In this document: positions 26,713 through 43,429 of the stretch, in pieces
Layout of the letters: every line of letters starts with the position of its first letter
How positions within the stretch are numbered: the first letter of the stretch is position 1
Origin: Candidatus Xenobia bacterium
Lineage (GTDB): Bacteria > Vulcanimicrobiota > Xenobia > Xenobiales > QWHO01
Length of the DNA stretch: 64,000 nucleotides
NCBI GenBank assembly: GCA_045863235.1
Contig: BTUM01000018.1
Span: 1-64,000, forward strand
Reading direction: 5' to 3'
The notes under the pieces: model-generated
What the model saw: only the letters and a program-made list of their open reading frames with translations
Database searches by the model: none
Told to the model about the DNA's origin: nothing
Made by a program: the position numbers and the translations under genes

Positions 26713-29700
26713 ATGGTGATGCTGATGCGCCGGCTCATGGCCCTCTCGCTGGCGGCCCTCTCCCTGACCTCTCCCGCTCTGGCCCAACCTCAGGACGGCC
26801 GGGTGGTCTCGGGCCAGGCCGTGATTCAGGCCGGCCCGGGCGGCCTGACCATCCGCCAGGGCACCGACAAGGCCATCCTGGAGTGGCGCAGCTTCAGCAT
26901 TCCCACCAGCCAGTTCGTGCGCTTCCTGCAGCCCTCCCAGGCCTCGGCGGTGCTCAATCGGGTCACCGGCGTCAACCCCTCCCTGATCATGGGCGAGCTG
27001 TCGGCCAACGGCCGGGTCTTTCTGGTCAATCCCAGCGGCATCGTGTTCGGTCCCACCGCCACGGTCAACGTGGGCAGCCTGTTCGCCACCACCATGCAGC
27101 TCTCCAATCAAGACTTCCTGGACGGCCGCTACACCTTCACCCCTGACCCCACCCGGCCCGATTCCTTCGTGATCAACCAGGGAGCCATCCAGGCTGCAGA
27201 CGGGGGCTACGTGGTGCTGATGGCGCCGCTGGTGAGCAACCAGGGCAGCATCGTGGCCCGCCTGGGCACCGTGACGCTGGCGGCCGTGCCCCGCACCACC
27301 GTCAACTTTGACGGTCAGGGGCTGGTGCACTACGTGGTCCCTTCCACTCCCGGGCAAGACGTCGTGCTGCCGAGCGACCTGGTCAACGACGTCATTGGCT
27401 CGCTGGTGGCCAGCAGCACCACCGACGCCAGCGGGGTCGAGCTGCAGGACGGCCAGGTGCGGCTGATCGGCGCCGGCGGCATGGCCCTCAACGAGGGCCG
27501 CATCGAAGCATCCGGTGGGCAGGTGAGCTTGCAGGGCGACCGCGTCGGCCTCCTGGGGCCGGCCACGGTGGATGTCTCGGCCCCCTCCCAGGCCGGGCGG
27601 GTGGACCTGCAGGGTGAGCGTTACGCCTACGTGGGCCCTGAGGCCACCATCCGCGCCGATGCGACCGAGCAGGGCGACGGAGGAGAGGTGCGGGTCCTGG
27701 CCGGGGACAGCACGGTGGTGGACGGTCTGGTCTCCGTGCGGGGTGGCCCCCAGGGGGGCGACGGTGGCTTCCTGGAGACCTCGGCCGGGCGCGTCTCGCT
27801 CAATCGGGCCCCCGACCTGGCCGCGCCCGAGGGGAAGGCCGGGACCTGGCTGATCGATCCCAACAACATCACCATCTGGAACCTGACCGAGGGGAACACC
27901 ACTTCCCCCAGCCCGTTCATCTCGCTGGGCGACGACGCGTCCATTCAGCCCATCACGCTCGAGAGCGCCCTGGCCTCGGGCGGAACCGTGATCGTGCAAA
28001 CCGGAACCGGGGCCCCCAACCTGCAGGCCGGCGACATCTATGTGCGGGCTCCCATCAACCCGATCAGCACTCCTGGAACCTCGACCCTGCTTTTGCAGGC
28101 TCACCGCGACATCGTGGTCTCCGCTCCCATCGGAGGGCAGGCCCCTCTGAACCTTGAGCTGCAGGCCAACTGGCTGGGCACAACCACCGGAAGCGTGGTG
28201 CTCGCGGCCGATCCTCAGACGGGCGGTGGCAACGTCGCGACGCTGGGAGGAAGCTTCACCGCCAGCGGCTCGGACATCGTCCAGGATCCTGGCCTGCTGC
28301 TGGCCACCAGCGGGGGCAACGTCCAGCTGACCCAGACCGGGTCGGTGGCTCTAAACGGTCTGGTGGATGCCGGCCCGGGAGCCGTGACCGTTCAGGCCGG
28401 CGGGCCGGTGACGGCCAGCGGCGTGACGGCGCAAACTCTCAACGTGCAGGCCGGGGGCAACGTGCAGCTCAATTCCCAGGTCAGCCAGTTGGGCCTGGAT
28501 ACGCCCCTGGACGCGGTGGTGACCAACGTCGGCGATCTGACCGTGTCGGTGGGTCAACGCGCCCGCCCGAACTCGCTCACCCTGGCCAATTCGGGCGCAG
28601 TGACCAACCTGGCCACCGACCCCTTGCGAGCCGGCGCAGTCAACCTCACAGCCGCCGGACCGGTCACCTTGAGCACCGAGGTCGACGTGCTGGCCATCAT
28701 TGCCGGCACCCAGAACATCGACGTGCGCCAGGCGGGAAACCTTGCGCTGGCCGGCATCCGAGGAAACGATGTCGCCATCGCTGGCACGGCCGACCTGACC
28801 GTGCTCGGGGTGACGGCCGCCGGCTCGGCCGACCTGCGCGCGGGCGGCTCCATCCTGGGGGCTCCCCTCTCGGCCGGGGCAAACCTGACGGCCCGGGCCA
28901 ACTCCTCCCTGGTGGCGGGTGGGCTGATCGGGACCCTGGCCGTGCCGCTCTCAGTGGACGTGCTCGGCAGCCTGGCCACCACTGCCGGCGGCGTTCAGAG
29001 CGGAGTCTCGGCCAACCTGGTGGGAGCAGTCGCTCCCTCCAACACCCTGCTGGTTCCGGCACCGCTGCCCCCCGGCGAGGTTCGTTTCAACGGGGTGGAC
29101 GTGCTCGCACCGCCGGTGGTGCCGCCCGTCACTCCGCCGGTCACGCCGCCGGTCGTGCCTCCCGTCGTGCCTCCGGTCGTGCCTCCGGTTGACCCGGTCG
29201 GCCCGGTTCCGCCCCCGGTCGACCCGCCCCTGGTTCCGGTCGATCCCCCGGCGGCCGACCCGCCCGCGCTCACCCTCGACCCCGGGGTTCCGGCCATCGA
29301 TCCCGACCTGCCGGCCGAGATCGTCGAGGCCTACGGGGCCGGCCAGCAGCAGATCACCCACCCGATCCCTCCGGCCGACCCGGGCGCGCCGCCCGAGCCC
29401 GGCTCTCCGCCCGATACCAGCTCGGCCCAGGCCTCGCTGGGCTTTACCTCCACCATGTCCAACCTGGCTCCCCCGCAGCCTGGCAGCACTGATCGGTTCG
29501 TGCTGGCGGCCCTGCTGCAGGCCTCGGTCTCTGACCCCGGCATGAGCCTGGGCCAGCTGGAGAACCTGAGCCAGCCGATGCCCCTCTCGGAGCTCTCGGC
29601 TTTCCTGGTCGGCGTGCTGGGCTCGCCCGCTCTGAGCGGCGACCTTTCCGCGCCGGCGACCCTCGAGAGCCTGCTGCAGGCTCTCTTCAGCGTCTACCAG

Positions 29701-30135
29701 ATCAACGCCCAGGGCAACCTCGCGGGCACCGCCCGCGAGCTCGGCATCCTGCCCGACGACGTGACCGGCTCCTCGCTCACCCGGGGTCAGGTCTTTGCTA
29801 TCCTCGACAGCGTCTTCTTCAATCTGCGCCTCCCCGATGGCCGCACCCTGTATCAGACCCAGTTCGACTCCGAGCCCCCGGCCATCGCCGTGGTGCCGTT
29901 CCCGGCTGTGTGCAGCGAGAGCTCTGTCACCCTTTCGGGCAGCGTCAGCCCGGGCACCACCCTGCTGCGAGTTGGTTACAGTGACGCCGACGTGGTGGTG
30001 CCGGACGATGATTGGAACTGGAGCGCCACCATCCCCCTGCAGCCCGGTCTCAACACCATTACGGTCCAGGCTCACGACGCGGCCGGCAACGTCACCACCC
30101 AGACCATTCAGGTCCTGTGCACGGTGGGCTCGTGA
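26713..30135 (+). CDS. Filamentous haemagglutinin-family (TpsA-like) exoprotein
   Basis: Signal peptide (ALA|Q), TPS domain (AVLNRVTG...FLVNPSGIVFG), GDGGFLETS, WLIDP, Pro-rich linker and C-terminal Ig-like domain (LQPGLNTITVQAHDAAGN). Confidence 0.88.
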   Translation: MVMLMRRLMALSLAALSLTSPALAQPQDGRVVSGQAVIQAGPGGLTIRQGTDKAILEWRSFSIPTSQFVRFLQPSQASAVLNRVTGVNPSLIMGELSANGRVFLVNPSGIVFGPTATVNVGSLFATTMQLSNQDFLDGRYTFTPDPTRPDSFVINQGAIQAADGGYVVLMAPLVSNQGSIVARLGTVTLAAVPRTTVNFDGQGLVHYVVPSTPGQDVVLPSDLVNDVIGSLVASSTTDASGVELQDGQVRLIGAGGMALNEGRIEASGGQVSLQGDRVGLLGPATVDVSAPSQAGRVDLQGERYAYVGPEATIRADATEQGDGGEVRVLAGDSTVVDGLVSVRGGPQGGDGGFLETSAGRVSLNRAPDLAAPEGKAGTWLIDPNNITIWNLTEGNTTSPSPFISLGDDASIQPITLESALASGGTVIVQTGTGAPNLQAGDIYVRAPINPISTPGTSTLLLQAHRDIVVSAPIGGQAPLNLELQANWLGTTTGSVVLAADPQTGGGNVATLGGSFTASGSDIVQDPGLLLATSGGNVQLTQTGSVALNGLVDAGPGAVTVQAGGPVTASGVTAQTLNVQAGGNVQLNSQVSQLGLDTPLDAVVTNVGDLTVSVGQRARPNSLTLANSGAVTNLATDPLRAGAVNLTAAGPVTLSTEVDVLAIIAGTQNIDVRQAGNLALAGIRGNDVAIAGTADLTVLGVTAAGSADLRAGGSILGAPLSAGANLTARANSSLVAGGLIGTLAVPLSVDVLGSLATTAGGVQSGVSANLVGAVAPSNTLLVPAPLPPGEVRFNGVDVLAPPVVPPVTPPVTPPVVPPVVPPVVPPVDPVGPVPPPVDPPLVPVDPPAADPPALTLDPGVPAIDPDLPAEIVEAYGAGQQQITHPIPPADPGAPPEPGSPPDTSSAQASLGFTSTMSNLAPPQPGSTDRFVLAALLQASVSDPGMSLGQLENLSQPMPLSELSAFLVGVLGSPALSGDLSAPATLESLLQALFSVYQINAQGNLAGTARELGILPDDVTGSSLTRGQVFAILDSVFFNLRLPDGRTLYQTQFDSEPPAIAVVPFPAVCSESSVTLSGSVSPGTTLLRVGYSDADVVVPDDDWNWSATIPLQPGLNTITVQAHDAAGNVTTQTIQVLCTVGS
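29111..29240 (+). repeat. 12-bp degenerate tandem repeat (PPVV/PPVT/PPVD) in the TpsA linker
   Basis: ccgccggtggtg / cctccggtcgtg units recur in tandem. Confidence 0.75.
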
Positions 30136-30791: not shown

Positions 30792-31817
30792 ATGGCCAGA
30801 CTGCTCGTTGCCCTGACCGCCCATGGTTTCGGCCATCTGGGCCAGTCAGCCCCCATCCTGAACAGCCTTCGGGGGGTCGAGCTGATCCTGGCCACCACCC
30901 TGCCGCAGGCGGTGCTGGAGCGTCACCTGACGGTGCCGTTCACTCGCATCGAGCGAGCTCTGGACGTAGGAGTGCGCAACCAGGACGCCCTCACGGTGGA
31001 CCGCCCGGGCACGCGGAGAGCTTACCAGGAGTTTCACGCCCGCTACCCGAGCGACCTGGACGAGGAGACAGCCTGGCTGCGCTCCTGCGCTCCCGATGCA
31101 GTGCTGGCCAACGTCCCCTATCGCGTGGCCGAGGCGGCTGCTCGGCTGGGAATCCCTTGCCTGGCGATGTGCAGCCTGAACTGGGGGGACATCGTGGCCG
31201 GCTGCCTGGGAGAGGTCGCCTGTCTGCCCGCCATCCGCCGCGCCTACGCCTCGGTGACCGAGTTCTGGCAGCCCATTCCCAGCATGCCCATGGAAAGCTT
31301 GCCTCGCCGGCGCGAACTGGGCCTGGTGGCGCGCCGGGGTATGCGGCGCTCGCTGGGCCTGAGCGGCAAGCTCGTGCTGGTCTCGCTGGGTGGCCTGCCG
31401 CTGCCCCGGCCTTCGGGCTGGCCTGACCTGCCCGGGGTCACCTGGCTGGTTCCCGAGGGCTGGCTGCCCGGCCACCCCCGGGCGGTGGCGGTGGAATCGC
31501 TGCCGGTGCCCTTCATCGACCTGGTGGCCAGTGCTGATTTGCTGATCACCAAGCCCGGCTACGGGAGCTTTGCCGAAGCCGCCAGCCACGGCCTGCCGGT
31601 TCTCTCCCTGCGTCGGCGCGACTGGCCCGAGGAGGCTTGCCTGTGGGAATTCATGCAGCGACGAGGCGGCCTGCGCGAGCTGGGGCGAGAGGCCTTCCTG
31701 GGCGGAGACTTCGGGGCGCTGGTGGAGGAGCTGCTCGAGGAGCCTCGACCCGAGCCGATCGAGCCGGAGGGGGTCGCGCAGGCGGTCGAGCGGTTGGGAG
31801 CTTACCTGGAGGGCTGA
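30792..31817 (+). CDS. Glycosyltransferase-like protein (GT-B fold)
   Basis: TAHGFGH N-terminal motif, VLVSLGG and DLLITKPGYGSFAEA. Confidence 0.75.
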   Translation: MARLLVALTAHGFGHLGQSAPILNSLRGVELILATTLPQAVLERHLTVPFTRIERALDVGVRNQDALTVDRPGTRRAYQEFHARYPSDLDEETAWLRSCAPDAVLANVPYRVAEAAARLGIPCLAMCSLNWGDIVAGCLGEVACLPAIRRAYASVTEFWQPIPSMPMESLPRRRELGLVARRGMRRSLGLSGKLVLVSLGGLPLPRPSGWPDLPGVTWLVPEGWLPGHPRAVAVESLPVPFIDLVASADLLITKPGYGSFAEAASHGLPVLSLRRRDWPEEACLWEFMQRRGGLRELGREAFLGGDFGALVEELLEEPRPEPIEPEGVAQAVERLGAYLEG

Positions 31818-31863: not shown

Positions 31864-32145
31864 TCAGCGCGACGACCCGGGTGTTTGCGGTGTCTGCGGG
31901 TGAGCGATCTCGAATCGGCCCTCGGCGACTGGCTGCACGGGCGGCCTCATGACCATTCCCCCGTTGACGGGCGGCTCAGGTCTCGATGGGCGGCGATGCA
32001 TGGCAGGTTGGGTGCGCGGGGGTGGTGGCACAGGCTCGGGCTCGGGCTCCATGGCTCGGGCCAGCAGGGCGGCCGAGACCGCGGCCCCGCCCGCGAAGAG
32101 CAGGTCGGCCAGGAACTGGCGGCGCTTTCGGGTCGGCTCGCTCAT
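31864..32145 (-). CDS. Tat-signal Pro-rich small protein 3 (putative radical SAM substrate)
   Basis: KRRQFLADLLFAGG signal shared with two paralogs. ATGA overlap with the upstream gene. Confidence 0.75.
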   Translation of the reverse strand: MSEPTRKRRQFLADLLFAGGAAVSAALLARAMEPEPEPVPPPPRTQPAMHRRPSRPEPPVNGGMVMRPPVQPVAEGRFEIAHPQTPQTPGSSR

Positions 32146-32420
32146 TGCGGAGGAGCCACCACCTGTGGCTGGGGAGCCATCACCTGGCCCGGGACCAGCG
32201 GACGAGCGCCGCCGTCGACGTTCGGCTCGACCGGCTCGCAGGTGCTGACCGGCGTGGGCGTGGGCGTGTTGACGGGCGCCACCTTGCCCATGACCTTAGG
32301 CTCGGGCTCAGGAGGGGTGTTGCCCAGGTAGCGGGCTGCCAGGGCGGCCGCGCCCAGGGCCCCGCCCGCGAACAGGGCGTCGGCCAGAAATTGGCGTCGT
32401 TTCAGTTTGTCGCCACTCAT
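32142..32420 (-). CDS. Tat-signal Pro-rich small protein 2 (putative radical SAM substrate)
   Basis: KRRQFLADALFAGG signal. ATGA overlap. Confidence 0.78.
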   Translation of the reverse strand: MSGDKLKRRQFLADALFAGGALGAAALAARYLGNTPPEPEPKVMGKVAPVNTPTPTPVSTCEPVEPNVDGGARPLVPGQVMAPQPQVVAPPQ

Positions 32421-32704
32421 CGGGCTTTCACCTCGCCTTCCACGACCGGGGATGGGCTCTGGACGGGCCTCATCTCCCCCAGGGCCGGGGGAGCAACATC
32501 GCCCTTGACCCGGGGCGCCTCCACCTCGCCCCGCATGCGCGGGGGCTCGGGCGATGGGGTGGACGACGGACTGGGCGGCGGTGTCGGGGGCGGATCCTTC
32601 TGGGCCATGGCCCAGCGGCTCACCAGCCCGGCACCGGCCATGGCCGTGCCGGCGAACAGCATGTCGGCGATGAAGCGGCGGCGCTTGAGGCGATCTTCCG
32701 ACAT
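32417..32704 (-). CDS. Tat-signal Pro-rich small protein 1 (putative radical SAM substrate), 95 aa
   Basis: True start at ATG 32704 overlaps the rSAM stop (TGATG). KRRRFIADMLFAGT signal with an AMA|Q cleavage-like site. Confidence 0.78.
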   Translation of the reverse strand: MSEDRLKRRRFIADMLFAGTAMAGAGLVSRWAMAQKDPPPTPPPSPSSTPSPEPPRMRGEVEAPRVKGDVAPPALGEMRPVQSPSPVVEGEVKAR

Positions 32705-33735
32705 CAGGCGGCCACCATCTGCAGCTCTTCGAGATACTGCCGGGCGGCTTCCACCGAGTCGCCGATCAGCTCGGCGAAGAAGCGGTGTACGCTCAACTGC
32801 TGCTGGATGTCGCCCGGCATCAGCGACACGCAGGCGCAGGGGCCGCTGGTGCCGCACGAGGACATCTTCTCGGCCGAGCAGCTGGTCACCGCCTGCACCC
32901 GATCGAGCAGCGGGCCGGTGTCCACCGTGCCTACCTGCACATCCACCCTGGTATCGGTGCCCACCAGGCGCGAGCAGGGGTAGAGCTTGCCCCGCGGCGA
33001 GACGGCCACGTCTTTGACCCCGAAGCTGCAGTGAGAGGTACGCGGCGCGCGCGGGTGCTGATCGGCAAACGGCGAGACGTGGTAGGGCTCGGGGGTGGCC
33101 ATGGAGAGGAAGACCACCCGGGCCATGTCGTGATAGACCCGGCGGGCCGTCTCGCGGGCGGCCTCGTCCCAGGCGGCCTCCATGTTGGGCAGCAGCGAGA
33201 CGCGCGAGACGCCCAGGCGGTACATCTGCTCCAGGGCGGCCGGAACCCCGCCGATGGTCTCGGGGTTGAGTACCATCAGCACGTGCAGGCGCTCGAGCGC
33301 TTCGGTGGCCGCCTCCAGGTTGCGCCACACCAGCTCGGAGGAGCTGCGCCCGTTGACGAAGGGGCGATGGCGGTCGTGGTCGGCCCCCATCCCGTCGATG
33401 CTGAGGGCCACCCAGAAGCCGTAATGGCGCAGGAAGTCGAGCTGCTTTTTGGTGAGGATGGTGGCGTTGGTGGTCAACGACAGCTCCAGGCGCCGGCCCT
33501 GGCGCTCTGCAAGGCGCGTGGCCAGGCGGGTCAGCCGGCTCATGGTCTTGAACTGCAGCATCGGCTCCCCGCCAAAGAACGAGACCCCCACGGTCTCCTC
33601 ACGCGGCCCGTGGAAGGCCATCTTGAGAGCCTTCCAGCCCAACTCCACCGGCATCGAGCGGTTGAACTTGTCGCCTGTGTAGCAGTAGCTGCAGGCCAGG
33701 TTGCACTGATGGGTCAGAACCAGCGAGACGCGCAC
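32704..33735 (-). CDS. Radical SAM protein with a C-terminal SPASM/twitch-like Cys region
   Basis: CNLACSYC motif, FFGGEPML, TTNAT, LSIDG, and C-terminal HCSFG...GKLYPC plus C-x7-C-x5-CAC. Confidence 0.9.
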   Translation of the reverse strand: MRVSLVLTHQCNLACSYCYTGDKFNRSMPVELGWKALKMAFHGPREETVGVSFFGGEPMLQFKTMSRLTRLATRLAERQGRRLELSLTTNATILTKKQLDFLRHYGFWVALSIDGMGADHDRHRPFVNGRSSSELVWRNLEAATEALERLHVLMVLNPETIGGVPAALEQMYRLGVSRVSLLPNMEAAWDEAARETARRVYHDMARVVFLSMATPEPYHVSPFADQHPRAPRTSHCSFGVKDVAVSPRGKLYPCSRLVGTDTRVDVQVGTVDTGPLLDRVQAVTSCSAEKMSSCGTSGPCACVSLMPGDIQQQLSVHRFFAELIGDSVEAARQYLEELQMVAA

Positions 33736-33830: not shown

Positions 33831-35255
33831 TCAGAGCAGGGGCACGAAAAGCCGGGCGACCCTGGTCCCCAGACGCGTGGCCAGGTTCAATCGCGTCAGC
33901 AGGTCGATGGAGAGCTTGCGAGCCACCGCAAAGTCGCTCGCGAGCATCGCTTCCATCTTCAGGGCGAAGGCCTGGTCAGCCACGATCAGGTTGCCCTCGA
34001 AGTTGAGGAACAAGGACCGGCTGTCCAGGTTCGAGCTGCCCACCCACGAGAGCCAGTCGTCCACCAGCATCACCTTGGAGTGGTTGTAATGGGGATACTC
34101 GTAGAACTGGATTCGGGTGTCACGAAGCTCGGGGATCAGGGCCAGCGCGGCCAGACGCATGGCGGGCTCGAAGCGAGCGGGGGGAAGAAGGATGCGCACC
34201 TCCACTCCCCGCAGATCGGCCATCTTCAAAGCTTTCAGGAGGGAAGAGTCGGGCAAGAAGTAGGGAGAGGCCAGCCACAGGCGGTGCCGGGCAGCGTTGA
34301 TGGACTCGAGGTAGGACATCACTCCAACCTGCATCGTATCGGCGGGCCCGCTGCTGAGGTAGGTGCAGGCCTGGTTTCCCCCGGCGGCCGGATGAGGCGT
34401 CCAGTCGACCGTGGGCAGCTCGCCCCGCGAGGCCCAGTAGAAGTCCTCGCAGAAGGCCAGCTGCACCCCCATCACGGCCGGCCCCTCGAGCACGGCATGA
34501 GTATCGCGCCAGGGGCCGAAGCGAGGGTCGCGGCCCAGGTGCCTGTCAGCGATGTTCATGCCTCCCACCAGGGCGACCCGCCCGTCCACCACGATGATCT
34601 TGCGATGGTTGCAGAAGTTCCACTGAAAGCTGTGACGCAGGCCTCGGGCGGCCCGGAAGGCCCTGGCATGGATGCCGGCTGCGCGCATCTCGTTGAGGAA
34701 GGCGCCTCGAATGGTGGGGCTGCCCAGCTCATCATAGACGAAGTAGACGCGCACTCCCTGGCGGGCCTTCTCGATCAGGTGTCGTTGCAGCGCCCGCCCG
34801 GAGTCGTCGTTGTGGACCTTGTAGAACAAGACCAGCACGTATTCCGTGGCCCGCTCGATCTCTTCGTGCATGCGAGCGTAGTGAGCCGGGCCGTCGATGA
34901 GTAGCTCCAGCTTGCACGAGTGGGTGAAAGGCGTGCGAGCGAGCTTCTCGAGCACCCGCAAGTTGGGGTCGTGGTAGCACCAGCGCGAAAGACCCTCCAG
35001 GATTTCGCGAATCGGCTGCGTCGAGCCTTGCCAGGCACTGGCTCTCAGCGGGTTGACGTAGCCTTCGAAGTGGGTGCTGCCGAAGACCAGGTAGAAGGGA
35101 AGCACCACGGCCGGGAAGGCCAGCAGGCTCAAAGACCAGGCCAGGGCTCCCTGGGGGGTGCTGGATTTCAAGATTGCATGCCCGGCGGCCAGCAGGCCCA
35201 GAAAGTGAAGGGTGGAGAGGACGATGAGCAAGGCTTCTCCCATGACGATGACCAT
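33831..35255 (-). CDS. cls: Cardiolipin synthase
   Basis: Two N-terminal TM helices, two HKD motifs (NHRKIIVVD, NHSKVMLVD), WRDTH and GSSNLDSRS. Confidence 0.9.
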   Translation of the reverse strand: MVIVMGEALLIVLSTLHFLGLLAAGHAILKSSTPQGALAWSLSLLAFPAVVLPFYLVFGSTHFEGYVNPLRASAWQGSTQPIREILEGLSRWCYHDPNLRVLEKLARTPFTHSCKLELLIDGPAHYARMHEEIERATEYVLVLFYKVHNDDSGRALQRHLIEKARQGVRVYFVYDELGSPTIRGAFLNEMRAAGIHARAFRAARGLRHSFQWNFCNHRKIIVVDGRVALVGGMNIADRHLGRDPRFGPWRDTHAVLEGPAVMGVQLAFCEDFYWASRGELPTVDWTPHPAAGGNQACTYLSSGPADTMQVGVMSYLESINAARHRLWLASPYFLPDSSLLKALKMADLRGVEVRILLPPARFEPAMRLAALALIPELRDTRIQFYEYPHYNHSKVMLVDDWLSWVGSSNLDSRSLFLNFEGNLIVADQAFALKMEAMLASDFAVARKLSIDLLTRLNLATRLGTRVARLFVPLL

Positions 35256-36329: not shown

Positions 36330-36686
36330 ATGGATCTCACCCCCGAGGATCGGATCAAGGTTTCTCAGGCCATCGCCAGCTGCTGGGCCATGCCCGAGTT
36401 CAAGGAACGCTTTCTGAGCGCTCCCCGCGAGGTGCTCGCCGAGCTTGGGGTGCAGATTCCTCCCGAGGTCGAGGTGCGCGTGGTCGCCGACACGCCCGAG
36501 GCGGTCTACGTCATTTTGCCTCGTCCCGATCTGCCCCAGTTCCTGGCCGCCGTGCTGCCCGGCGCCATCGGCCGCGAGCTGCGACTGGTGCAAAACGACG
36601 CGCGCCATCTGTACCTGCCGCTGCCCATGCCACCCTCGGGGTTGGTCAGCGCCATGCAGACCGGACTGGAGGGCATCGAGCCTTAG
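36330..36686 (+). CDS. NHLP (nitrile hydratase-like leader) domain protein
   Basis: CWAMPEFKERFLSAPREVLAELGVQIPPEVEVRVVADTPEAVYVILP leader pattern. GGAGG RBS. Confidence 0.75.
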   Translation: MDLTPEDRIKVSQAIASCWAMPEFKERFLSAPREVLAELGVQIPPEVEVRVVADTPEAVYVILPRPDLPQFLAAVLPGAIGRELRLVQNDARHLYLPLPMPPSGLVSAMQTGLEGIEP

Positions 36687-36765: not shown

Positions 36766-39447
36766 TCAGGGTCTGGCGAGGAGGTACACCTTGCCGTCCG
36801 CGGCGGTGACGAGCGAGAAATTACCTCGCATCATGCGGCCACCGAGCCAGTTGAAGGGTCCCTCTGGATCGGGGTTTCCGGTACGTCGGGTCGATGCCAC
36901 CACCGTATCCAGAGCCGTGGGTGCCCCACTGCGCGAGAACAGGACCGGCCCGCCGGCGTTGGCTCCCGCAACCTCGCCCTGGTCATTGATGGCCAGCCCG
37001 CTGCCGTTGCCCAGCGATCTGCCATCCACGGTGATCCGACCGTTGTCGGTCGCCAGGATCTGTCCTTCGTTATTCAGATCGATAGAGAACGGAGGCCCCG
37101 GAGTCGACAGGTTGCCGGGCGGGGGCGGCACCGGGATCGGAATCTTGAGCTCGGTCAGCGGATCGACATTGTAGAGGTTTTCGAGTACCGAAGGCTCCCT
37201 TCTGTGATCCTGAACATATGGGGTAATCACGGGTTTGAGCACGCCGCTGCTCAAATCCAGGCTGAAGTTCAAACCCACGATTCGACTGATCAAGCGGAGT
37301 GTAACCTTCACAGGAGTCTTGTCAAAGAGGCCCTTGTAGTTCGTGACCTCTAATGTGTCGCCCGGCTGAGCAGTGTCCGGCCGCGACCCGTTCCCGATCA
37401 GGAGCAGGTCGTCGTTGAGACCCGCGAGGGTGAAGCTCGCGGAGCCAAGCTTGCTTGGGATGCCGACTGCTTGGGTCGGCGCAAAACCCTGGTCCAGAAG
37501 GTCTTTGGTATCGGCTTGAACCGCCACGGCGACCCAGGCATCAAGCCCCTCCTGGAAAGTCCCGACCGCGTATGACCCCACACCCTGGGAACCCTCGACA
37601 CGGTCAGTCAAGAACAGGGGAATGAAGCTCGTTAGGCTCGCGCCCTTCGGAGGAGTGACTTCGAGTCTCTGCCCCTCGGAGGAGACATAGAAGACCTTCT
37701 TGGATGATTCGTCTTTGTACAAGACATCATCGTCACTGTTCAAAGCGGCAGCCTGGGACCCGGTAGACGCGATCTGCACCGGGTCTGCGCCAAAGGGTTT
37801 GAGGAAAAGGCCACTCTGGGTGGAGTCACCCGAAGCCGCGTTGTAGAGCACCGTGCCAGCGTCGTTCACGCCCAGGTATTGCACGCCCGGAGGATTAGGA
37901 AGTTCGTAGAGGCCCGGTGGAAGGACTCGAAATGTGATCAGAATGCTGCGACGGTCCACCATGAATTCATAGGTGGCTTCAGATTCGACTGGAGCTCCCT
38001 CCGGAGCAATAAACTCAACTGCCAGATCGGGCAAGTATTCTTTGACGTCATCCTTGGTGCCGGGAGTAGGCCTGAAAAAGGGCGGGTCAAAATGATGTAT
38101 CTCCTGGATGCCAAAGAAGCTCGTCAAGTATTTACCCGCGGTTCTTCCTGGCGGCGTAGGGACGTTAAGACGACCCCCGATCTCATTCCTGATTTCCTTG
38201 ATCTTTGTAATCCCAAAAGCACCGTTATTGTGCAGGACAAATCGCGCACGCCGGGAGAACCCTACCACCACCACGCTCGGTCGACGGGGAGAAGCCTTCA
38301 CGACTTTGTCTCCGGGCAATAGACAGGCGAGGTCACCCATGTTGATCATCGAGCAATTTCGGCCCTTATGATTCTGGTAGCATGAAAGGTCGGCAAATTT
38401 CAAAGTCGGATCGTCTTGCTTATCCGCCCGCAACCTGGTCAAGACGTCCTCGGCATTCTCAACCACGTTGTCGCCGGAACCCTCGGGGAAGAGCAACGCT
38501 GGCAGCACGAGCACGAGCGAGCGACGCAGAAGCTCGTACTCAAGGTCAGAGGCAAAGTTTTCGTTGAGACACGCGTTGACTTTGATGAACTGATCGCAAG
38601 TACTGAAGAAATACTTGACTTCGGCAGGAACGTCATCTCGGAACCTGGCTATCCCGTCATCAATGACGCAGTTCTGAACTGCCTCTGCAGGGGTGGCCGC
38701 CGCGTAAGGAACCTTCGGATCCGCGTAGGTCCCCAACCTCCCGGCGACCAGTTGGCGACGCTTGTTAAACGATAGAAGGGGAGGGAGCAGATCCGCCTCA
38801 GATGGAGGATCGAGTGTAGGGCCAATGGCGGCCGCTTGAATCGGGTCGGTCGTCCGAGGCTGGAGCCGGCCGCAAAATTCATCGATGTCACCGAAGCTCA
38901 TCCCACAGGGTCCATTGAAAATGAGCGGAACAATGACGGGATGGCCTCGGTCTCTGGCGATGCCCAGTTGCTCCACGGTGAACTCAAACGCTAAGCCAGG
39001 CTCAGAGGGGTGATAGAAGAAGCCGACGCTAGCGTCCGCTGGCTCCTGAAAGGCGAATGCACCATCCGCGTCCACCAGCACCTGCTGACTGCCCAACTCG
39101 GCTGTCCAACCGGCGGCAGGGGAGAGCGGCCAGATCACCATCTCTCCCTCCCCCAAAACCTGAAGATCACCCGACTCGATCTCGGCTTTCCCCTGGAGCA
39201 CTGCGGCACGTTCGCGTTCTGGAACCGCCATGACGGCAAGGGTTGCAACTCTCCCGGAGAAGGCCGGCGTGGTAGGGACTTGCGGTTGAGGGTTGACCTC
39301 ACCCCCGCCAGCCCCGACTGTGGTGGAACCCGATCCGCCGCAACCGCCAGCGACAGGAGCCAGAAGCAGGAGAACCAGGCCGAGCATCACTGCCCAATGC
39401 GTTGGGCCGACAACCGGTGGTCGGGAAACCGCTCGAGGGATTTTCAT
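36766..39447 (-). CDS. Large lipoprotein with a Cys-rich central region and C-terminal HAF-like repeats
   Basis: Lipobox AGGC followed by GGSGS. Repeats GVNDAG, LNSDDD, LNDDL, LNNEGQ and INDQGEVAG. Confidence 0.7.
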   Translation of the reverse strand: MKIPRAVSRPPVVGPTHWAVMLGLVLLLLAPVAGGCGGSGSTTVGAGGGEVNPQPQVPTTPAFSGRVATLAVMAVPERERAAVLQGKAEIESGDLQVLGEGEMVIWPLSPAAGWTAELGSQQVLVDADGAFAFQEPADASVGFFYHPSEPGLAFEFTVEQLGIARDRGHPVIVPLIFNGPCGMSFGDIDEFCGRLQPRTTDPIQAAAIGPTLDPPSEADLLPPLLSFNKRRQLVAGRLGTYADPKVPYAAATPAEAVQNCVIDDGIARFRDDVPAEVKYFFSTCDQFIKVNACLNENFASDLEYELLRRSLVLVLPALLFPEGSGDNVVENAEDVLTRLRADKQDDPTLKFADLSCYQNHKGRNCSMINMGDLACLLPGDKVVKASPRRPSVVVVGFSRRARFVLHNNGAFGITKIKEIRNEIGGRLNVPTPPGRTAGKYLTSFFGIQEIHHFDPPFFRPTPGTKDDVKEYLPDLAVEFIAPEGAPVESEATYEFMVDRRSILITFRVLPPGLYELPNPPGVQYLGVNDAGTVLYNAASGDSTQSGLFLKPFGADPVQIASTGSQAAALNSDDDVLYKDESSKKVFYVSSEGQRLEVTPPKGASLTSFIPLFLTDRVEGSQGVGSYAVGTFQEGLDAWVAVAVQADTKDLLDQGFAPTQAVGIPSKLGSASFTLAGLNDDLLLIGNGSRPDTAQPGDTLEVTNYKGLFDKTPVKVTLRLISRIVGLNFSLDLSSGVLKPVITPYVQDHRREPSVLENLYNVDPLTELKIPIPVPPPPGNLSTPGPPFSIDLNNEGQILATDNGRITVDGRSLGNGSGLAINDQGEVAGANAGGPVLFSRSGAPTALDTVVASTRRTGNPDPEGPFNWLGGRMMRGNFSLVTAADGKVYLLARP

Positions 39448-39457
39448 CTTACGCTCC

Positions 39458-42400
39458 TTAACGCGTAATGCCGAACGGGCTGTTGAACCCCGCGAACGGA
39501 GAACCCGTGATGGCGGTCAGTGCGGCTGTGGTCGGGTCCACCAGGAAGGCGGCCAACCGGGTCGAGGCGGTAACGTAGAGGCCGAACTGACCTCCGGTGA
39601 GGTTGAGGTCGGCAAACTGGTGCGGGTTTGCATTCCCGACCGGGACGGGAGCGCCAAGCGAGACCGGCTGACCGGCAGCATTGATGCTGAAAGCGGAGAT
39701 GGTGTCCTCCGGCGGACCGTTGGCGCAGAACAGCAGGTTCCCGACCACGGGATGCACCAGGTGGTGAAGAGCGCCGCTGGCCGCGCCTCCGGAAGGAACG
39801 CTTCCCAGGAAGCTCAGGCCGCCGGTAGCCAGATTGATGTCGAAGGCCGAAATCGTATCCGGAGCCGGGCCCTGGTTAGTGATATAGAGCCTGCTCCCGA
39901 CCACGGCCAGGCCTCCCGGATTCACGCCGACCCCGATGGGAGTTACCGGGCCCGGAGTCAAGAGCCCGGTCGCATTGTCGTAACTGAAGGAATGGACGTT
40001 GTTTCCGCCTCCGTTCCCCTGGATGACGAACAGGAGGTCGGGGCCCCCGCCGGTCGAGGCGCGGAACGCCAGCTCGTTGGGCTGCGAGCCGCCGGGAATG
40101 GGAACGGAGTTGGTGCTCAGCACATTGCCGGTGCTCGGGTCGAGGCGAATCGCGTAGACGTTGGCCTCGAACTCGGCCAGCACGAACACGGCATTCACCC
40201 CGTTGCTGGCGATGTGCAGCGGATTGAAGTTGGTGCTGAAGGGAGGGGCCGTTGGAGAACTGGCCGCCGGAGTCAAGGTCCCGGTCACCGAGTCATAATG
40301 GAAGACGCTGAGTTGGCAAGCTCCCGTCGCTTCCACGAGATCGGCACAGACGATCAGGTTCGACACCCTTTCGACTGCGTGCGTGCGGCCACTGGTCGCG
40401 AAGGGAGAGCCCGAGACAAGGACCGGAACGCCCCCCGAATCGACAGCCAGAGAATTGACCCCTCCGGTCCCGCTGTTGTCGTTGGCCACGAAGAGGTGAC
40501 CTACCAGAGCCATGCCAGGGTTCAACCTTACGTCGAACGCCTGCGTCGAAGCCGAGCCCAGCCCGGGGCTGGTGGCCAGAAGCACCCTGGAAAACCTCTC
40601 GGTATCCAACCTGAGGTTGTCGAACACGGCCACGCCGTTGACGGCCCTGCGCACCAGTTGGCCGCTTAGAGTGCCGTCAAATCCGGCGGCACTCTGGACG
40701 ATGGCCAGAGTGATCTCGTTGGTCGCTCCGGCCACCCGGCCATTGAGGTCCCAGACTTCTACAGTCAGGGTGAAAGGAGCGTTGGGGGCAACACTCGCCG
40801 GCGGCTGGCCGGTGACGACCAGGCGGACGGGTCCGAAGACCGTCACCTCCGCATCTGCAATCTCGTTGTCCAAAATCGCGCAAACTCTGGTCGTGCCGGC
40901 GGCCCGGGCCGTGGCCTGACCGTTGGCCCCGAACGAAAGAACCTCCGGGCGCAGGGAGATCCAGCGAACCCGATTCGTAAGGTCGCGAGACGAGCCGTCC
41001 ATGAAGACCCCCACCGCCCTGAACCCTGCGGTGGTCCCTTGATTGAGAGAAGCCGGCGATTGGATGCTCAAGCTCTGCAAGGCCGGATCCTGGACGAACA
41101 GGTCAACCCAGGTCCGGTTGCCTCCGAAGGAGGCCTCGATGTTCGTCCTTCCGGCCGCCAGGCCGGTCGCAAGTCCACCGCCCTCGATGCTGGCGACGGT
41201 CGCATCGCTGGAAGTGAAACGGGACTGGGAGGTGACCTCACGGACCGAGCCGTCGAGCAAGGTGCCGAGCACCCTGAAGGCGACCGTGGCACCGATCCCG
41301 ATGTAGTGGCCGACGGGCTCTCGATCCGTGATCGGCCGCGGCAGAAGTTGGAGGTGGCTTCCCGGAGGATACTCAATGGTGAACCGAGCGCTGCCGTCCT
41401 TCGCCTTCACGCGGGGAGAAGTGGGAAACGGAATGAGGGTGGGCCCGGACGGATTCAAGGTGGCGGTCACCGTGACCTGACCCGGGAATTCCCCACGCAA
41501 AAACTTCCCATCTAGAGAGGCGACTTCGCTGGCCTCGATCGAAAAGGCGGCCGAGTTCGTGACATCCTGGATCTCCCCGTCGCTCCAGGTCGCCGTGGCT
41601 CGAAGCGGGGCCACTTCGCCGGGCCGCAGCGGCCCCAGAAACTCGGTCTGCGAGACCTCGGGGGGCGCTCCCGGCGGAGCCAATTGGTCGCGCAGCGGCT
41701 CGCGAAGACTCACCGTGACTCTATCGACGGTGGGAGGCACGACCTGGATGAAGCCCTGGGTGGAGGCACCGCTAGGGTGTCGGCAAGTGATGATCACCAA
41801 CCCGTCCTTGAGGGCTTCCACCCGCGTCTTCTTGCCTCGGGCCTTGAGAACTCGGACTACCGTAGGATCACTGCTCTCCCATAAGCCAACGGCCGGGCTG
41901 AAAGGAGCTCCCTGGGCGAACGCGCCTTCTGCCTCCAACTCGAGGATCCGACCGATTCGCAAAAGCGTGGGCTGTTGGTCGAGCGCCTTGACGCTCATCG
42001 AAATGGGCAGGCGGGGATTCTCAAATGTCTTCCCCTGGAGAACGCGGTTGTCCGGGGGACCCTGGAAGTAGGATTTGTCCTTGCCAACCTGTTCCGTGAC
42101 GTCCACGGCCGAACGGTTGGACAGGTCCACGGCAAAACTGGTCCACTGGTGGTTGGCGGTCCACTGGAGAACGTGCTGCAGGGTGGACTCGAGAGTTGGA
42201 ACCTGGCCGCCGGTATCCGGGTAGCGGGTCTGCAAGCGTACCCGCAGCACATCCTGGCGAAGGGAGAGGTCATTGATGGCGATGGGTTGAGGAAACCCCG
42301 GCAAGCTCTGGAAGAACTTCGTCTTCGTGATGTCGGTCTTGATCTCCAGGAACCGCAGGTCGAAGTCGATATCGCTCTCCGGCGGCGTCACGACCTCGCC

Positions 42401-43429
42401 GGTCATGTTGCTGGCGTTGAATTCCTGGATCTGCGCCTGGCTGGAAAAGACGAACGCCTGGGAAATGTTGCCCGTGCGCGGGTCCGGGTAGCCCGTGAAG
42501 TAGCGCTGACCGAGCCGCGTCTCAACGCCCCAGTGCTCTTCGGGTTTCTCAGACTCCCTGTTTCCACCAGCAATCTTGAACTTGCAGGGAGTTTCAATGG
42601 ACCCGTTCCAGCGCAAGAAGAGTTGGCATTCGACGACCGGCGTGATGGCTCCCATAGGAGCCAGGTTAAAGGTTAGCGGCTTACACAGGTCAACTGTGCC
42701 GCCGCCTTCAGCGTCACTGACGGCTTCGAATTCAACATCGGCTCTGCAATGGCTGAACGGAACCAGGGAGAACTCAGCCACGCCTCCCCCTGCAACGTTG
42801 GCATCAGGCCGAACCAGGACGGACTGCTCGAAACCGTAAATGAGCTCGGCTTTGCCTTTCAGAAGACCGACGACCTGGCCGGTGTCATCCAGAACGGGGA
42901 CCTTGCCGAAGTCGATCTGAATCACCGGCGATGCGACGGCCCCGTCGGTCTCGTGGCGACCCTGAACCGTAGAGGCACTCAAGGTCAAGCCCGGGACAGC
43001 CGGCTCGAGTCGAGCCAGGACCTCGGACCCGATGAGCTGGGTTTGCTGGATATTGGCTGAGCTGTAGATTTCGGTCAGCCCGGCTGGTACGGTCTGCACC
43101 AGGGTCTGGGGGCCGTTCTGCTGGACGCTGACGACCTTGCGCTCGAAGACGAAGTCTCCCTCGTTCTTGATGATCACGGTATCGGGAACCAGCTCGGGAA
43201 CATTGCCGCCGAGGGTGACCGAGCTCTCCTCCACACTCACCACGGTGACATCCGGCCCCAGAATCAGGACGTTCCGCTGGAGGACGAACTCATTGGTGGC
43301 GGTGGTCACCAGACCGTCCGGCGAAGTGACCGGACCTTGCGCGCCGCCTGCCCCACTTCCCCCACTGCACCCGACGAAACAAAGGCAAGCAAGAGAGAGC
43401 AGACAAAGCCTGAGGAATGAATAGCGCAC
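39458..43429 (-). CDS. Surface lipoprotein with Ig-like (Big_2) repeats and a C-terminal lactonase-like beta-propeller
   Basis: Lipobox FVGC, repeated W/F-x-SSD-x-x-V and DG-x-x-x-D-V/L-T motifs, AVNGVAVFDNL, and GSPF-containing propeller blades. Confidence 0.78.
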   Translation of the reverse strand: MRYSFLRLCLLSLACLCFVGCSGGSGAGGAQGPVTSPDGLVTTATNEFVLQRNVLILGPDVTVVSVEESSVTLGGNVPELVPDTVIIKNEGDFVFERKVVSVQQNGPQTLVQTVPAGLTEIYSSANIQQTQLIGSEVLARLEPAVPGLTLSASTVQGRHETDGAVASPVIQIDFGKVPVLDDTGQVVGLLKGKAELIYGFEQSVLVRPDANVAGGGVAEFSLVPFSHCRADVEFEAVSDAEGGGTVDLCKPLTFNLAPMGAITPVVECQLFLRWNGSIETPCKFKIAGGNRESEKPEEHWGVETRLGQRYFTGYPDPRTGNISQAFVFSSQAQIQEFNASNMTGEVVTPPESDIDFDLRFLEIKTDITKTKFFQSLPGFPQPIAINDLSLRQDVLRVRLQTRYPDTGGQVPTLESTLQHVLQWTANHQWTSFAVDLSNRSAVDVTEQVGKDKSYFQGPPDNRVLQGKTFENPRLPISMSVKALDQQPTLLRIGRILELEAEGAFAQGAPFSPAVGLWESSDPTVVRVLKARGKKTRVEALKDGLVIITCRHPSGASTQGFIQVVPPTVDRVTVSLREPLRDQLAPPGAPPEVSQTEFLGPLRPGEVAPLRATATWSDGEIQDVTNSAAFSIEASEVASLDGKFLRGEFPGQVTVTATLNPSGPTLIPFPTSPRVKAKDGSARFTIEYPPGSHLQLLPRPITDREPVGHYIGIGATVAFRVLGTLLDGSVREVTSQSRFTSSDATVASIEGGGLATGLAAGRTNIEASFGGNRTWVDLFVQDPALQSLSIQSPASLNQGTTAGFRAVGVFMDGSSRDLTNRVRWISLRPEVLSFGANGQATARAAGTTRVCAILDNEIADAEVTVFGPVRLVVTGQPPASVAPNAPFTLTVEVWDLNGRVAGATNEITLAIVQSAAGFDGTLSGQLVRRAVNGVAVFDNLRLDTERFSRVLLATSPGLGSASTQAFDVRLNPGMALVGHLFVANDNSGTGGVNSLAVDSGGVPVLVSGSPFATSGRTHAVERVSNLIVCADLVEATGACQLSVFHYDSVTGTLTPAASSPTAPPFSTNFNPLHIASNGVNAVFVLAEFEANVYAIRLDPSTGNVLSTNSVPIPGGSQPNELAFRASTGGGPDLLFVIQGNGGGNNVHSFSYDNATGLLTPGPVTPIGVGVNPGGLAVVGSRLYITNQGPAPDTISAFDINLATGGLSFLGSVPSGGAASGALHHLVHPVVGNLLFCANGPPEDTISAFSINAAGQPVSLGAPVPVGNANPHQFADLNLTGGQFGLYVTASTRLAAFLVDPTTAALTAITGSPFAGFNSPFGITR

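Follow-up and report, generated by a model that had tools for sequence, protein, structure and literature searches.

A conserved glycine motif in the small partner proteins of an apparently undescribed radical SAM enzyme family

Introduction

New enzyme chemistry comes in large part from radical SAM peptide maturases, and those known so far mostly need Cys, aromatic residues or a Tyr-Gly pair in the peptides on which they act. Cyclophane formation needs aromatic residues, and in the spliceases (PlpX type) a radical SAM/SPASM enzyme acts on an X-Y-G motif. PapB links CX3D-type Cys-x3-Asp/Glu motifs in its precursor (available part of PMC9413430). Cys-Gly sactionines exist, and the C-alpha of Gly is a proven radical SAM site in StsA (both in the available part of PMC10288494). 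In the system described here, the sole invariant residue is a Gly, and its proteins lack such handles.

The system lies in the window, by which we mean the whole stretch of 64,000 nucleotides that was analysed (contig BTUM01000018.1 of a Candidatus Xenobia bacterium). An earlier note on this DNA had counted nine copies of the heptamer P-x-[VMA]-x-G-x-[VMAF] in three small proteins and had taken them for the target of a multi-site modification or for a docking motif. This work confirms that the Gly motif is real, and its status as a conserved element of the partners of an apparently undescribed radical SAM family is well supported. The putative peptide-modification system, which recurs in several bacterial phyla, appears to be undescribed: our literature search, with its limited coverage of subscription chemistry journals, returned no description of it, and the available parts of PMC8939145 and PMC9259500 do not cover it.

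Results

Cassette layout and the glycine heptamers

The cassette is read from the minus strand, beginning with a radical SAM enzyme gene (32704..33735, 343 aa), followed by precursor 1 (P0001, 32417..32704, 95 aa), precursor 2 (P0002, 32142..32420, 92 aa) and precursor 3 (P0003, 31864..32145, 93 aa). The genes are chained by overlaps, TGATG between the enzyme stop and the P0001 start and ATGA at the P0001/P0002 and P0002/P0003 borders; a Shine-Dalgarno-like stretch stands before each of the three precursor ORFs, and third-codon-position GC is 0.80-0.84. Two parts are missing from the range 31864..32560 given earlier: the head of precursor 1, which reaches 32704, and the enzyme gene, which reaches 33735. 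All three precursors are built of a head and a Pro-rich tail. Precursor 1, whose head is of the RRxF type, has four Gly motifs and no Cys, precursor 2 has three motifs and one Cys, and precursor 3 has two motifs and no Cys.

All nine heptamers are present exactly as first written. In P0001 they occupy residues 55-61 (Gly59, 32522..32542), 64-70 (Gly68, 32495..32515), 72-78 (Gly76, 32471..32491) and 86-92 (Gly90, 32429..32449); in P0002 residues 41-47 (Gly45, 32280..32300), 66-72 (Gly70, 32205..32225) and 74-80 (Gly78, 32181..32201); and in P0003 residues 58-64 (Gly62, 31954..31974) and 72-78 (Gly76, 31912..31932), all on the minus strand. Their centres account for 9 of the 12 tail glycines. 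The last copy of precursor 1 overlaps the ribosome-binding site of precursor 2: its Glu-Val codons are the Shine-Dalgarno-like GAGGTG, so that this copy is partly constrained at the DNA level. When the three tails were shuffled 20,000 times with their composition preserved, the heptamer occurred 0.16 times on average and at most three times, against nine observed, and the looser form h-x-G-x-h was likewise found nine times versus 0.68 expected (maximum 5). Because the heptamer pattern was fitted to these same nine copies, the enrichment in the window is after the fact, and homologues provide the independent test of the motif.

Orthologues of the three proteins at locus L001 keep all nine motif glycines and one of the three other tail glycines, small numbers in both cases. 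The Gly of the first copy is retained, and that of the third is retained in an orthologue that differs at -2, -1, +1 and +2; one orthologue of P0003 is just 62% identical and still keeps its motif glycines. As had been noted, the DNA around the motif copies is divergent, the tails of the three precursors agreeing at 48-53% and the heads at 63-71% by global alignment.

None of the three precursors has a match over the cut-off in NCBIfam or Pfam. P0002 matches PF10399 (Tat-signal) weakly, below the cut-off (E 0.037); its ESM Atlas feature scores (0.79-0.81) lie within the range reached by shuffled proteins, so that its Tat-signal neighbours there count as leads only. Structure matches of P0002 were set aside, the query model having a pLDDT of only 0.40. 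Contigs from RNA libraries (four runs) cover the cassette patchily and at low depth, and the flanks equally, so that strand and level are unreadable and DNA is a possible source. The cardiolipin synthase gene (33831-35255) and the glycosyltransferase-like gene (30792-31817) were not found as recurring neighbours beyond the closest relative and are left out of the cassette. The same applies to a 118-aa ORF with an NHLP leader domain (36330-36686, plus strand; TIGR03793, 58.4 bits, over the cut-off), for which no link to the cassette was found. Elsewhere in the window, large secreted-looking proteins are encoded at 39458-43429(-), 36766-39447(-) and 26713-30135(+), and GC drops to 0.60-0.62 across 36-40 kb, compared with about 0.68.

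The motif in homologous precursors

The precursor set comprised 47 distinct head-bearing sequences, which gave 40 non-redundant tails (cores), or 37 when the three window-like tails were left out. The exact heptamer matched 27 times in 20 of the 40 tails, against 1.8 in shuffles, and the 37 remaining cores held 19 matches where 1.6 were expected (maximum 7 in 2000 shuffles). Both conditions that the earlier note had set for rejecting its proposal were checked, and neither held: the motif stands above shuffled sequence in the window, and it occurs in homologous precursors. Around the 201 tail glycines, the enrichment of Pro is 2.0-fold at -4 and 2.1-fold at +5; that of Leu/Ile/Val/Met at -2 ranges from 2- to 5-fold, and that of Val/Met at +2 from 4- to 5-fold. 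Positions -2 and +2 also take Pro, Thr and Ala, and positions -1 and +1 are highly variable (-1 including Gly and Pro). The heptamer as first worded is therefore enriched but too narrow, since the -4 Pro is enriched only two-fold, the -2 residue is often Leu or Ile, and the +5 Pro is equally enriched; the refined consensus is P-x-h-x-G-x-h-x-x-P. A strict form, [LIVM]-x-G-x-[VMPI], had 69 matches in 35 of the 40 tails versus 10.7 expected, the broader patterns having been picked after the data were seen.

Pro makes up about 26% of the precursor tails. The motif was not enriched in 196 Pro-rich segments that served as controls and were taken from long ORFs of the same genome (37 versus 37.4 expected; 10 versus 8.5 for the exact heptamer). 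The origin of the motif as a chance product of Pro-rich low complexity in GC-rich DNA, or of tandem duplication, has a negligible probability and is already refuted: the Pro content, the one copy that overlaps a ribosome-binding site and the fitting of the pattern after the fact would all suit it, but independent homologues are enriched more than 10-fold and control segments are not, the tail DNA is divergent, and motif glycines survive in the 62%-identical orthologue.

Cys occurs in 34 of the 40 cores and exactly once in 28. This lone Cys often follows Thr, Ser or Glu and stands at no fixed distance from the Gly motif. An apparent enrichment of Cys-to-Gly spacings (14 versus 4.8 under full shuffling) was rejected, as it shrank to 12 versus 9.2 (p 0.19) once the motifs were held fixed. 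A strict genome-wide scan demanding two full copies of the motif gave no matches, the criterion being too narrow. Stand-alone genes with the head and the Gly motif, distant from the enzyme gene, were seen at G000 C31:44187-44531(+) and at most of the 26 loci that were read, which suggests that their products could be substrates modified in trans.

The radical SAM enzyme

The enzyme is likely the maturase of the adjacent precursors. It carries CxxxCxxC at residues 11-18 (C11, C15, C18) and matches PF04055 over the cut-off (E 4.6e-20); its C-terminus is of a shortened SPASM type with C236, C254, C294, C300 and C302, of which C236, C254, C300 and C302, together with G249, are invariant in a 44-row alignment. 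The first auxiliary motif of SPASM domains is defined as Cx9-15Gx4C, and it is present here as C236, G249 and C254; CX2CX5C and the last Cys of the full SPASM domain are missing. The second auxiliary motif CX2CX5CX3C was found in 0/17 clade members with an adjacent head gene, all of which have thus lost Cys of the second auxiliary cluster, versus 42/44 and 28/28 distant relatives. In the latter (70/72) an extra Cys extends it to CX2CX5CX3C-x-C, which is absent from three outgroups.

The open frame of 344 codons starts at the catalytic core without an N-terminal extension, and hence the enzyme has no fused RRE. A PF05402 (PqqD-like) profile has five matches in the genome, none of them on the contig of the window. 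Among the best 25 of 75 enzyme matches, no NCBIfam family reaches its cut-off, PapB (NF047865) coming first with 170.6 bits versus 340. The enzyme model (pLDDT 93.6) matches the radical SAM barrel fold; the top Foldseek match is CteB (5WHY, TM 0.77), followed by anSME and ChlB, and the epimerase EpeE is a distant match (TM 0.47-0.49, versus 0.77-0.78 for CteB). Among the named relatives, those from Vulcanimicrobiota (Eremiobacterota) assemblies come closest, being 95% and 83% identical.

The head as signal and docking element

The heads comprise residues 1-34 of precursor 1 (32603..32704; an uncharged run of 15 and an AxA site), residues 1-31 of precursor 2 (32328..32420) and residues 1-31 of precursor 3 (32053..32145, in the head alignment), all on the minus strand. 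Twin-arginine (Tat) signals follow the rule of an RR-x-F-L motif and then an uncharged stretch of at least 13 residues. RRxF is present in 62/65 heads, with an invariant Asp after it in a 21-row alignment, and an uncharged run of at least 13 is present in 65/65, including all three window heads; an AxA site occurs in 28/65, which is weak evidence in Ala-rich sequence. The host genome encodes TatC (E 2e-62). TIGR01409 (cut-off 16.7 bits) does not match the three window proteins, but it matches a homologous head (L216, 18.5 bits) and a distant partner (L035, 17.5 bits). Judged from its sequence, the head looks like a twin-arginine signal, export and cleavage being predicted; the invariant Asp, the low share of heads with an AxA site and the lack of a TIGR01409 match in the window heads count against it.

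The head would also serve as a leader. A complex prediction of the enzyme with P0002 residues 1-54 scored 0.80, the best control scoring 0.01; the mark used was reached by 116/157 solved pairs and 2/215 mismatched pairs, and the custom alignments and the ligands that were used lie outside this calibration. The runs agree in at least 57% of contacts, with a partner pLDDT of at least 63. In the model, R9, L12, A13, L16 and F17 of the head of precursor 2 pack on enzyme residues 165-175 and 206-218, and the Gly motif at residues 41-47 was not confidently placed. The complex model supports binding between enzyme and head, and its score may owe something to resemblance with solved complexes of a leader on its enzyme, for example ChlB-ChlA, one of the fold hits. 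Since the model docks the N-terminal head and not the motif, the alternative that the motif itself is the docking element is weakened for the window enzyme. The multi-site target, the other half of the original proposal, has indirect backing from gene linkage, co-occurrence, Gly retention and the recurrence of the motif beside distant enzyme relatives.

The patch E169-Y172-R173-G175 on the modelled interface is present in 13/14 enzymes that go with the window head subtype and in 0/6 of the sister-subclade enzymes shown. Two paralogous enzymes each are encoded in G050 (L164/L177), G082 (L166/L178), G096 (L169/L179) and G110 (L165/L176). The sister subclade has a different predicted docking patch and is accompanied by the head variant F-[LI]-T-D-L-L-F, hinting at matched enzyme-head pairs.

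The head is not exclusive to the window enzyme and is a shared module, because it also precedes microviridin-like and CPACGM cores, in which the Gly motif is not conserved. In the genome of the window, at G000 C33:24439-24777(-) and C93:28866-29219(-), the same head is joined to a PFFxxxL stretch and TxxYPSDxD repeats, resembling microviridin-like graspetide precursors to which an export signal has been added; orthologues of these two (among L216, L219, L220 and L223) score 24.5 and 21.9 bits with NF033738 (microviridin family; cut-off 26). ORFs with two to eight TxxYPSD repeats and without the head lie on C53, C57, C84, C114 and C156 of the same genome, with MvdD-like ATP-grasp genes on C53, C57 and C84 that are all below the TIGR04184 cut-off. 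Directly upstream of a gene of the DUF692 family (PF05114, E 6e-45), at C1 about 215716-216000(+) (L232), stand a weaker head, a Pro/Ser/Thr linker and a CPACGM core; the motif of ChrA is CPACGMG (available part of PMC10214503).

Enzyme-precursor linkage and the wider family

In the 151 genomes of the phylum, the enzyme had 22 matches in 18 genomes. Adjacent genes with a head and a Pro-rich tail follow 18 of the 22, up to eight after one enzyme gene (L002); three have none within 1.5 kb and one is cut by the contig end. The head profile matches 18 of the 151 genomes, and 17 of these coincide with enzyme-bearing genomes, which all belong to one class and so are not independent; the exceptions are G040, with the enzyme at a contig end, and G106, an assembly 65% complete. 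Neither inspection of ten cassettes nor neighbour clustering revealed a conserved flanking accessory gene, peptidase or transporter, and the lack of a recurring peptidase or transporter gene fits the use of general export machinery.

The wider family comprises 157 loci with enzyme relatives, to which partners were assigned by an automatic rule: the window head at 12, PxYP-led signal-bearing proteins at 35, globular proteins of 120-170 aa at 29, and nothing at 81. Of the 81, 13 were reassigned by eye to the PxYP/Pro-rich type, and short contigs and enzymes of greater distance account for many of the others. Among the named hosts are assemblies of Myxococcota, Planctomycetota, Ignavibacteriales, Verrucomicrobiota and Ca. 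Brocadia. A tree of 151 sequences was built with FastTree after three duplicates and all sequences shorter than 270 aa had been removed. In it the Vulcanimicrobiota enzymes form one clade (support 100) within a larger group that includes the distant relatives (86), the nearest sister having 53. The link between this clade and the distant relatives thus has moderate support.

Among 39 PxYP-type partners, 25 have a lipobox-like Cys and nine have RRxF. Their lipoprotein-like tails contain h-x-G-x-h-x-x-P 20 times versus 6.6 expected (maximum 19 in 1000 shuffles), and the exact heptamer is not enriched in them (2 versus 1.5). The globular partners have no signal-like head; in 23 of the 25 aligned members (of 29), G-x-h-x-x-[PAL] stands directly before an invariant H-x-H, and 19 of the 25 have no Cys. 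As the motif recurs in head-type, PxYP-type and globular partners, it is a feature common to three partner architectures. Eight distant partner proteins yielded no family-level name, with one Tat-signal domain match only. In the globular family (L044:6218-6646 and 28 other loci) G-G-h-R-x-P precedes the H-x-H, which is possibly a metal site beside a modified glycine. Two members had no NCBIfam match, and a model of the family (pLDDT 75) matched nothing above Z 4.0 among 48,161 chains and was uninformative.

Discussion

In our view the adjacent radical SAM enzyme very probably has the three small proteins as its substrates. Enzyme and precursor genes make up a minimal, coupled cassette, and more precursor genes are dispersed elsewhere in the genome. 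The N-terminal helix of the precursor (RRxFLADxLF) would dock outside the enzyme barrel in place of an RRE, as modelled, and the disordered Pro-rich tail would then feed each h-x-G-x-h-x-x-P unit into the active site. There the Gly C-alpha may lose a hydrogen to the 5'-deoxyadenosyl radical, and the resulting Gly radical may be oxidised to an alpha-imine by the one auxiliary cluster that is left. A backbone amide nitrogen (-2 Da) or water (+16 Da, possibly followed by cleavage) could trap this imine, with no Cys involved. The same head would finally act as a Tat signal for export of the modified tail, which would then be freed at an AxA site or stay anchored in the membrane; that the head is both leader and export signal seems to us reasonably probable.

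We place the radical at the Gly C-alpha because Gly is the sole invariant residue of the motif while -1 and +1 vary widely, and, given that the proteins are substrates, this is somewhat favoured. For the chemistry as a whole, in which the motif copies are the modified sites and Gly is oxidised to an imine that is trapped by backbone nitrogen or water, we see about even prospects. A Cys trap is unlikely, since two window proteins are Cys-free, the 41 Cys of the set face 92 motifs and are not positioned relative to them, and 19/25 globular partners have no Cys; Cys-independent trapping is thus favoured over epimerisation, docking of another partner, thioether formation and chance.

The strongest competitor, in our opinion still unlikely, is that the motif is the target and its Gly has a steric or recognition role only, the enzyme altering a residue nearby, most likely the -2 or +2 hydrophobe, by an epimerisation that leaves the mass unchanged or in some other way, with C302 as hydrogen donor. 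The substrates of peptide epimerases are aliphatic residues, with a Cys as the donor, and spliceases require the Gly of X-Y-G although they excise another residue; both precedents count for this alternative, as do the enrichment of L/I/V/M at -2 and +2, the extra Cys of CX3C-x-C across the family, and the loss of CX2CX5C and of the last Cys of the second auxiliary cluster in the clade, which fits non-oxidative chemistry equally. However, the -2 and +2 positions accept Pro, Thr and Ala as well, the -1 and +1 positions are highly variable, Gly alone is invariant across the three partner architectures, and EpeE is far more distant in fold than CteB.

It is rather improbable that the motif is instead a binding or processing signal for an extracellular partner (a receptor, a protease or self-assembly), with the enzyme acting on the head or elsewhere, or chaperoning the export signal. 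The complex model places the head only, the head has an invariant Asp and sits on other core types, and many genes with head and motif lie far from the enzyme gene, all of which this explanation would accommodate. Nevertheless, distant partners share the Gly motif and not the head, globular partners without a signal-like head carry the motif in 23/25, and no conserved accessory gene emerged at ten cassettes or from neighbour clustering.

Crosslinking was among the chemistries first suggested for the motif, but its Cys-based forms, either a Cys-to-Gly sactionine or a PapB-type Cys-to-Asp/Glu thioether, are now disfavoured and very improbable. The closest family (PapB) and the closest fold (CteB) are indeed thioether formers, and most cores have a Cys, usually just one. 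Yet P0001 and P0003 hold six motifs with zero Cys, the Cys that do exist are unplaced relative to the motif, and CX3D/E occurs in only 7/40 cores.

A broader reading, which we put forward tentatively and hold with less confidence than the chemistry above, is that an undescribed, widespread radical SAM family carries out a new, Cys-independent backbone modification of Gly in exported peptides, lipoproteins and small globular proteins of many phyla, and that in Vulcanimicrobiota a Tat signal serves as the leader and is shared with graspetide- and DUF692-type cores. If so, several classes of peptide modification within one cell would have the head in common as their leader and export module, and a Tat signal doubling as a leader would be an unusual link between peptide maturation and export. 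Only two components make up the system, and the Cys-free precursor 1 offers four candidate sites; protein engineering would gain a useful tool from a Gly-directed modification that is minimal and portable.

In its mode of action the proposed system is like a radical SAM peptide maturase that lacks an RRE and whose precursor has several sites, and it differs from each of the described systems. It resembles PapB/PapA and CteB/CteA in its best NCBIfam family (NF047865) and in multi-site action on a repeated motif, CteB (5WGG/5WHY) being the best solved relative by profile and fold (E 6e-43, TM 0.77). Unlike PapB and CteB, the window enzyme has no RRE and has lost Cys of the second auxiliary cluster; it scores half of the PapB cut-off (four distant relatives reach 190-246 bits), and the window substrates have no CX3D motif, two of the three being without Cys. 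With StsB/StsA and BlaB/BlaA it would share radical chemistry at the Gly C-alpha of a ribosomal peptide (available part of PMC10288494 for StsA), which is proposed here, but those systems need paired Cys and an RRE protein (StsC), whereas Cys here are absent or unpaired and not positioned relative to the Gly. The likeness to spliceases of the PlpX type is a short, repeated, Gly-containing precursor motif; however, none of the 40 window-type cores contains YG, position -1 is free, and the nif11-class family scores 118 bits versus a cut-off of 518.7. ChlB/ChlA (9GM3), a solved leader-on-radical-SAM complex among both the fold and the sequence hits, is a precedent for direct leader docking, although the window-type cores are nearly devoid of aromatics (Trp in 1/40). 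In HXS (HxsA/B/C/D), a radical SAM-matured, signal-bearing protein with short repeats is likewise exported after modification (available part of PMC13128918). The HXS motif is His-x-Ser, and the system uses two enzymes, HxsD and a peptidoglycan-binding domain, whereas the window cassette has one enzyme and no HxS repeats, its enzyme scores 81 bits against the HxsB family (cut-off 370), and nothing indicates a defence role. In function, HXS still offers the closest precedent for an exported protein that has a repeated motif and is matured by radical SAM enzymes.
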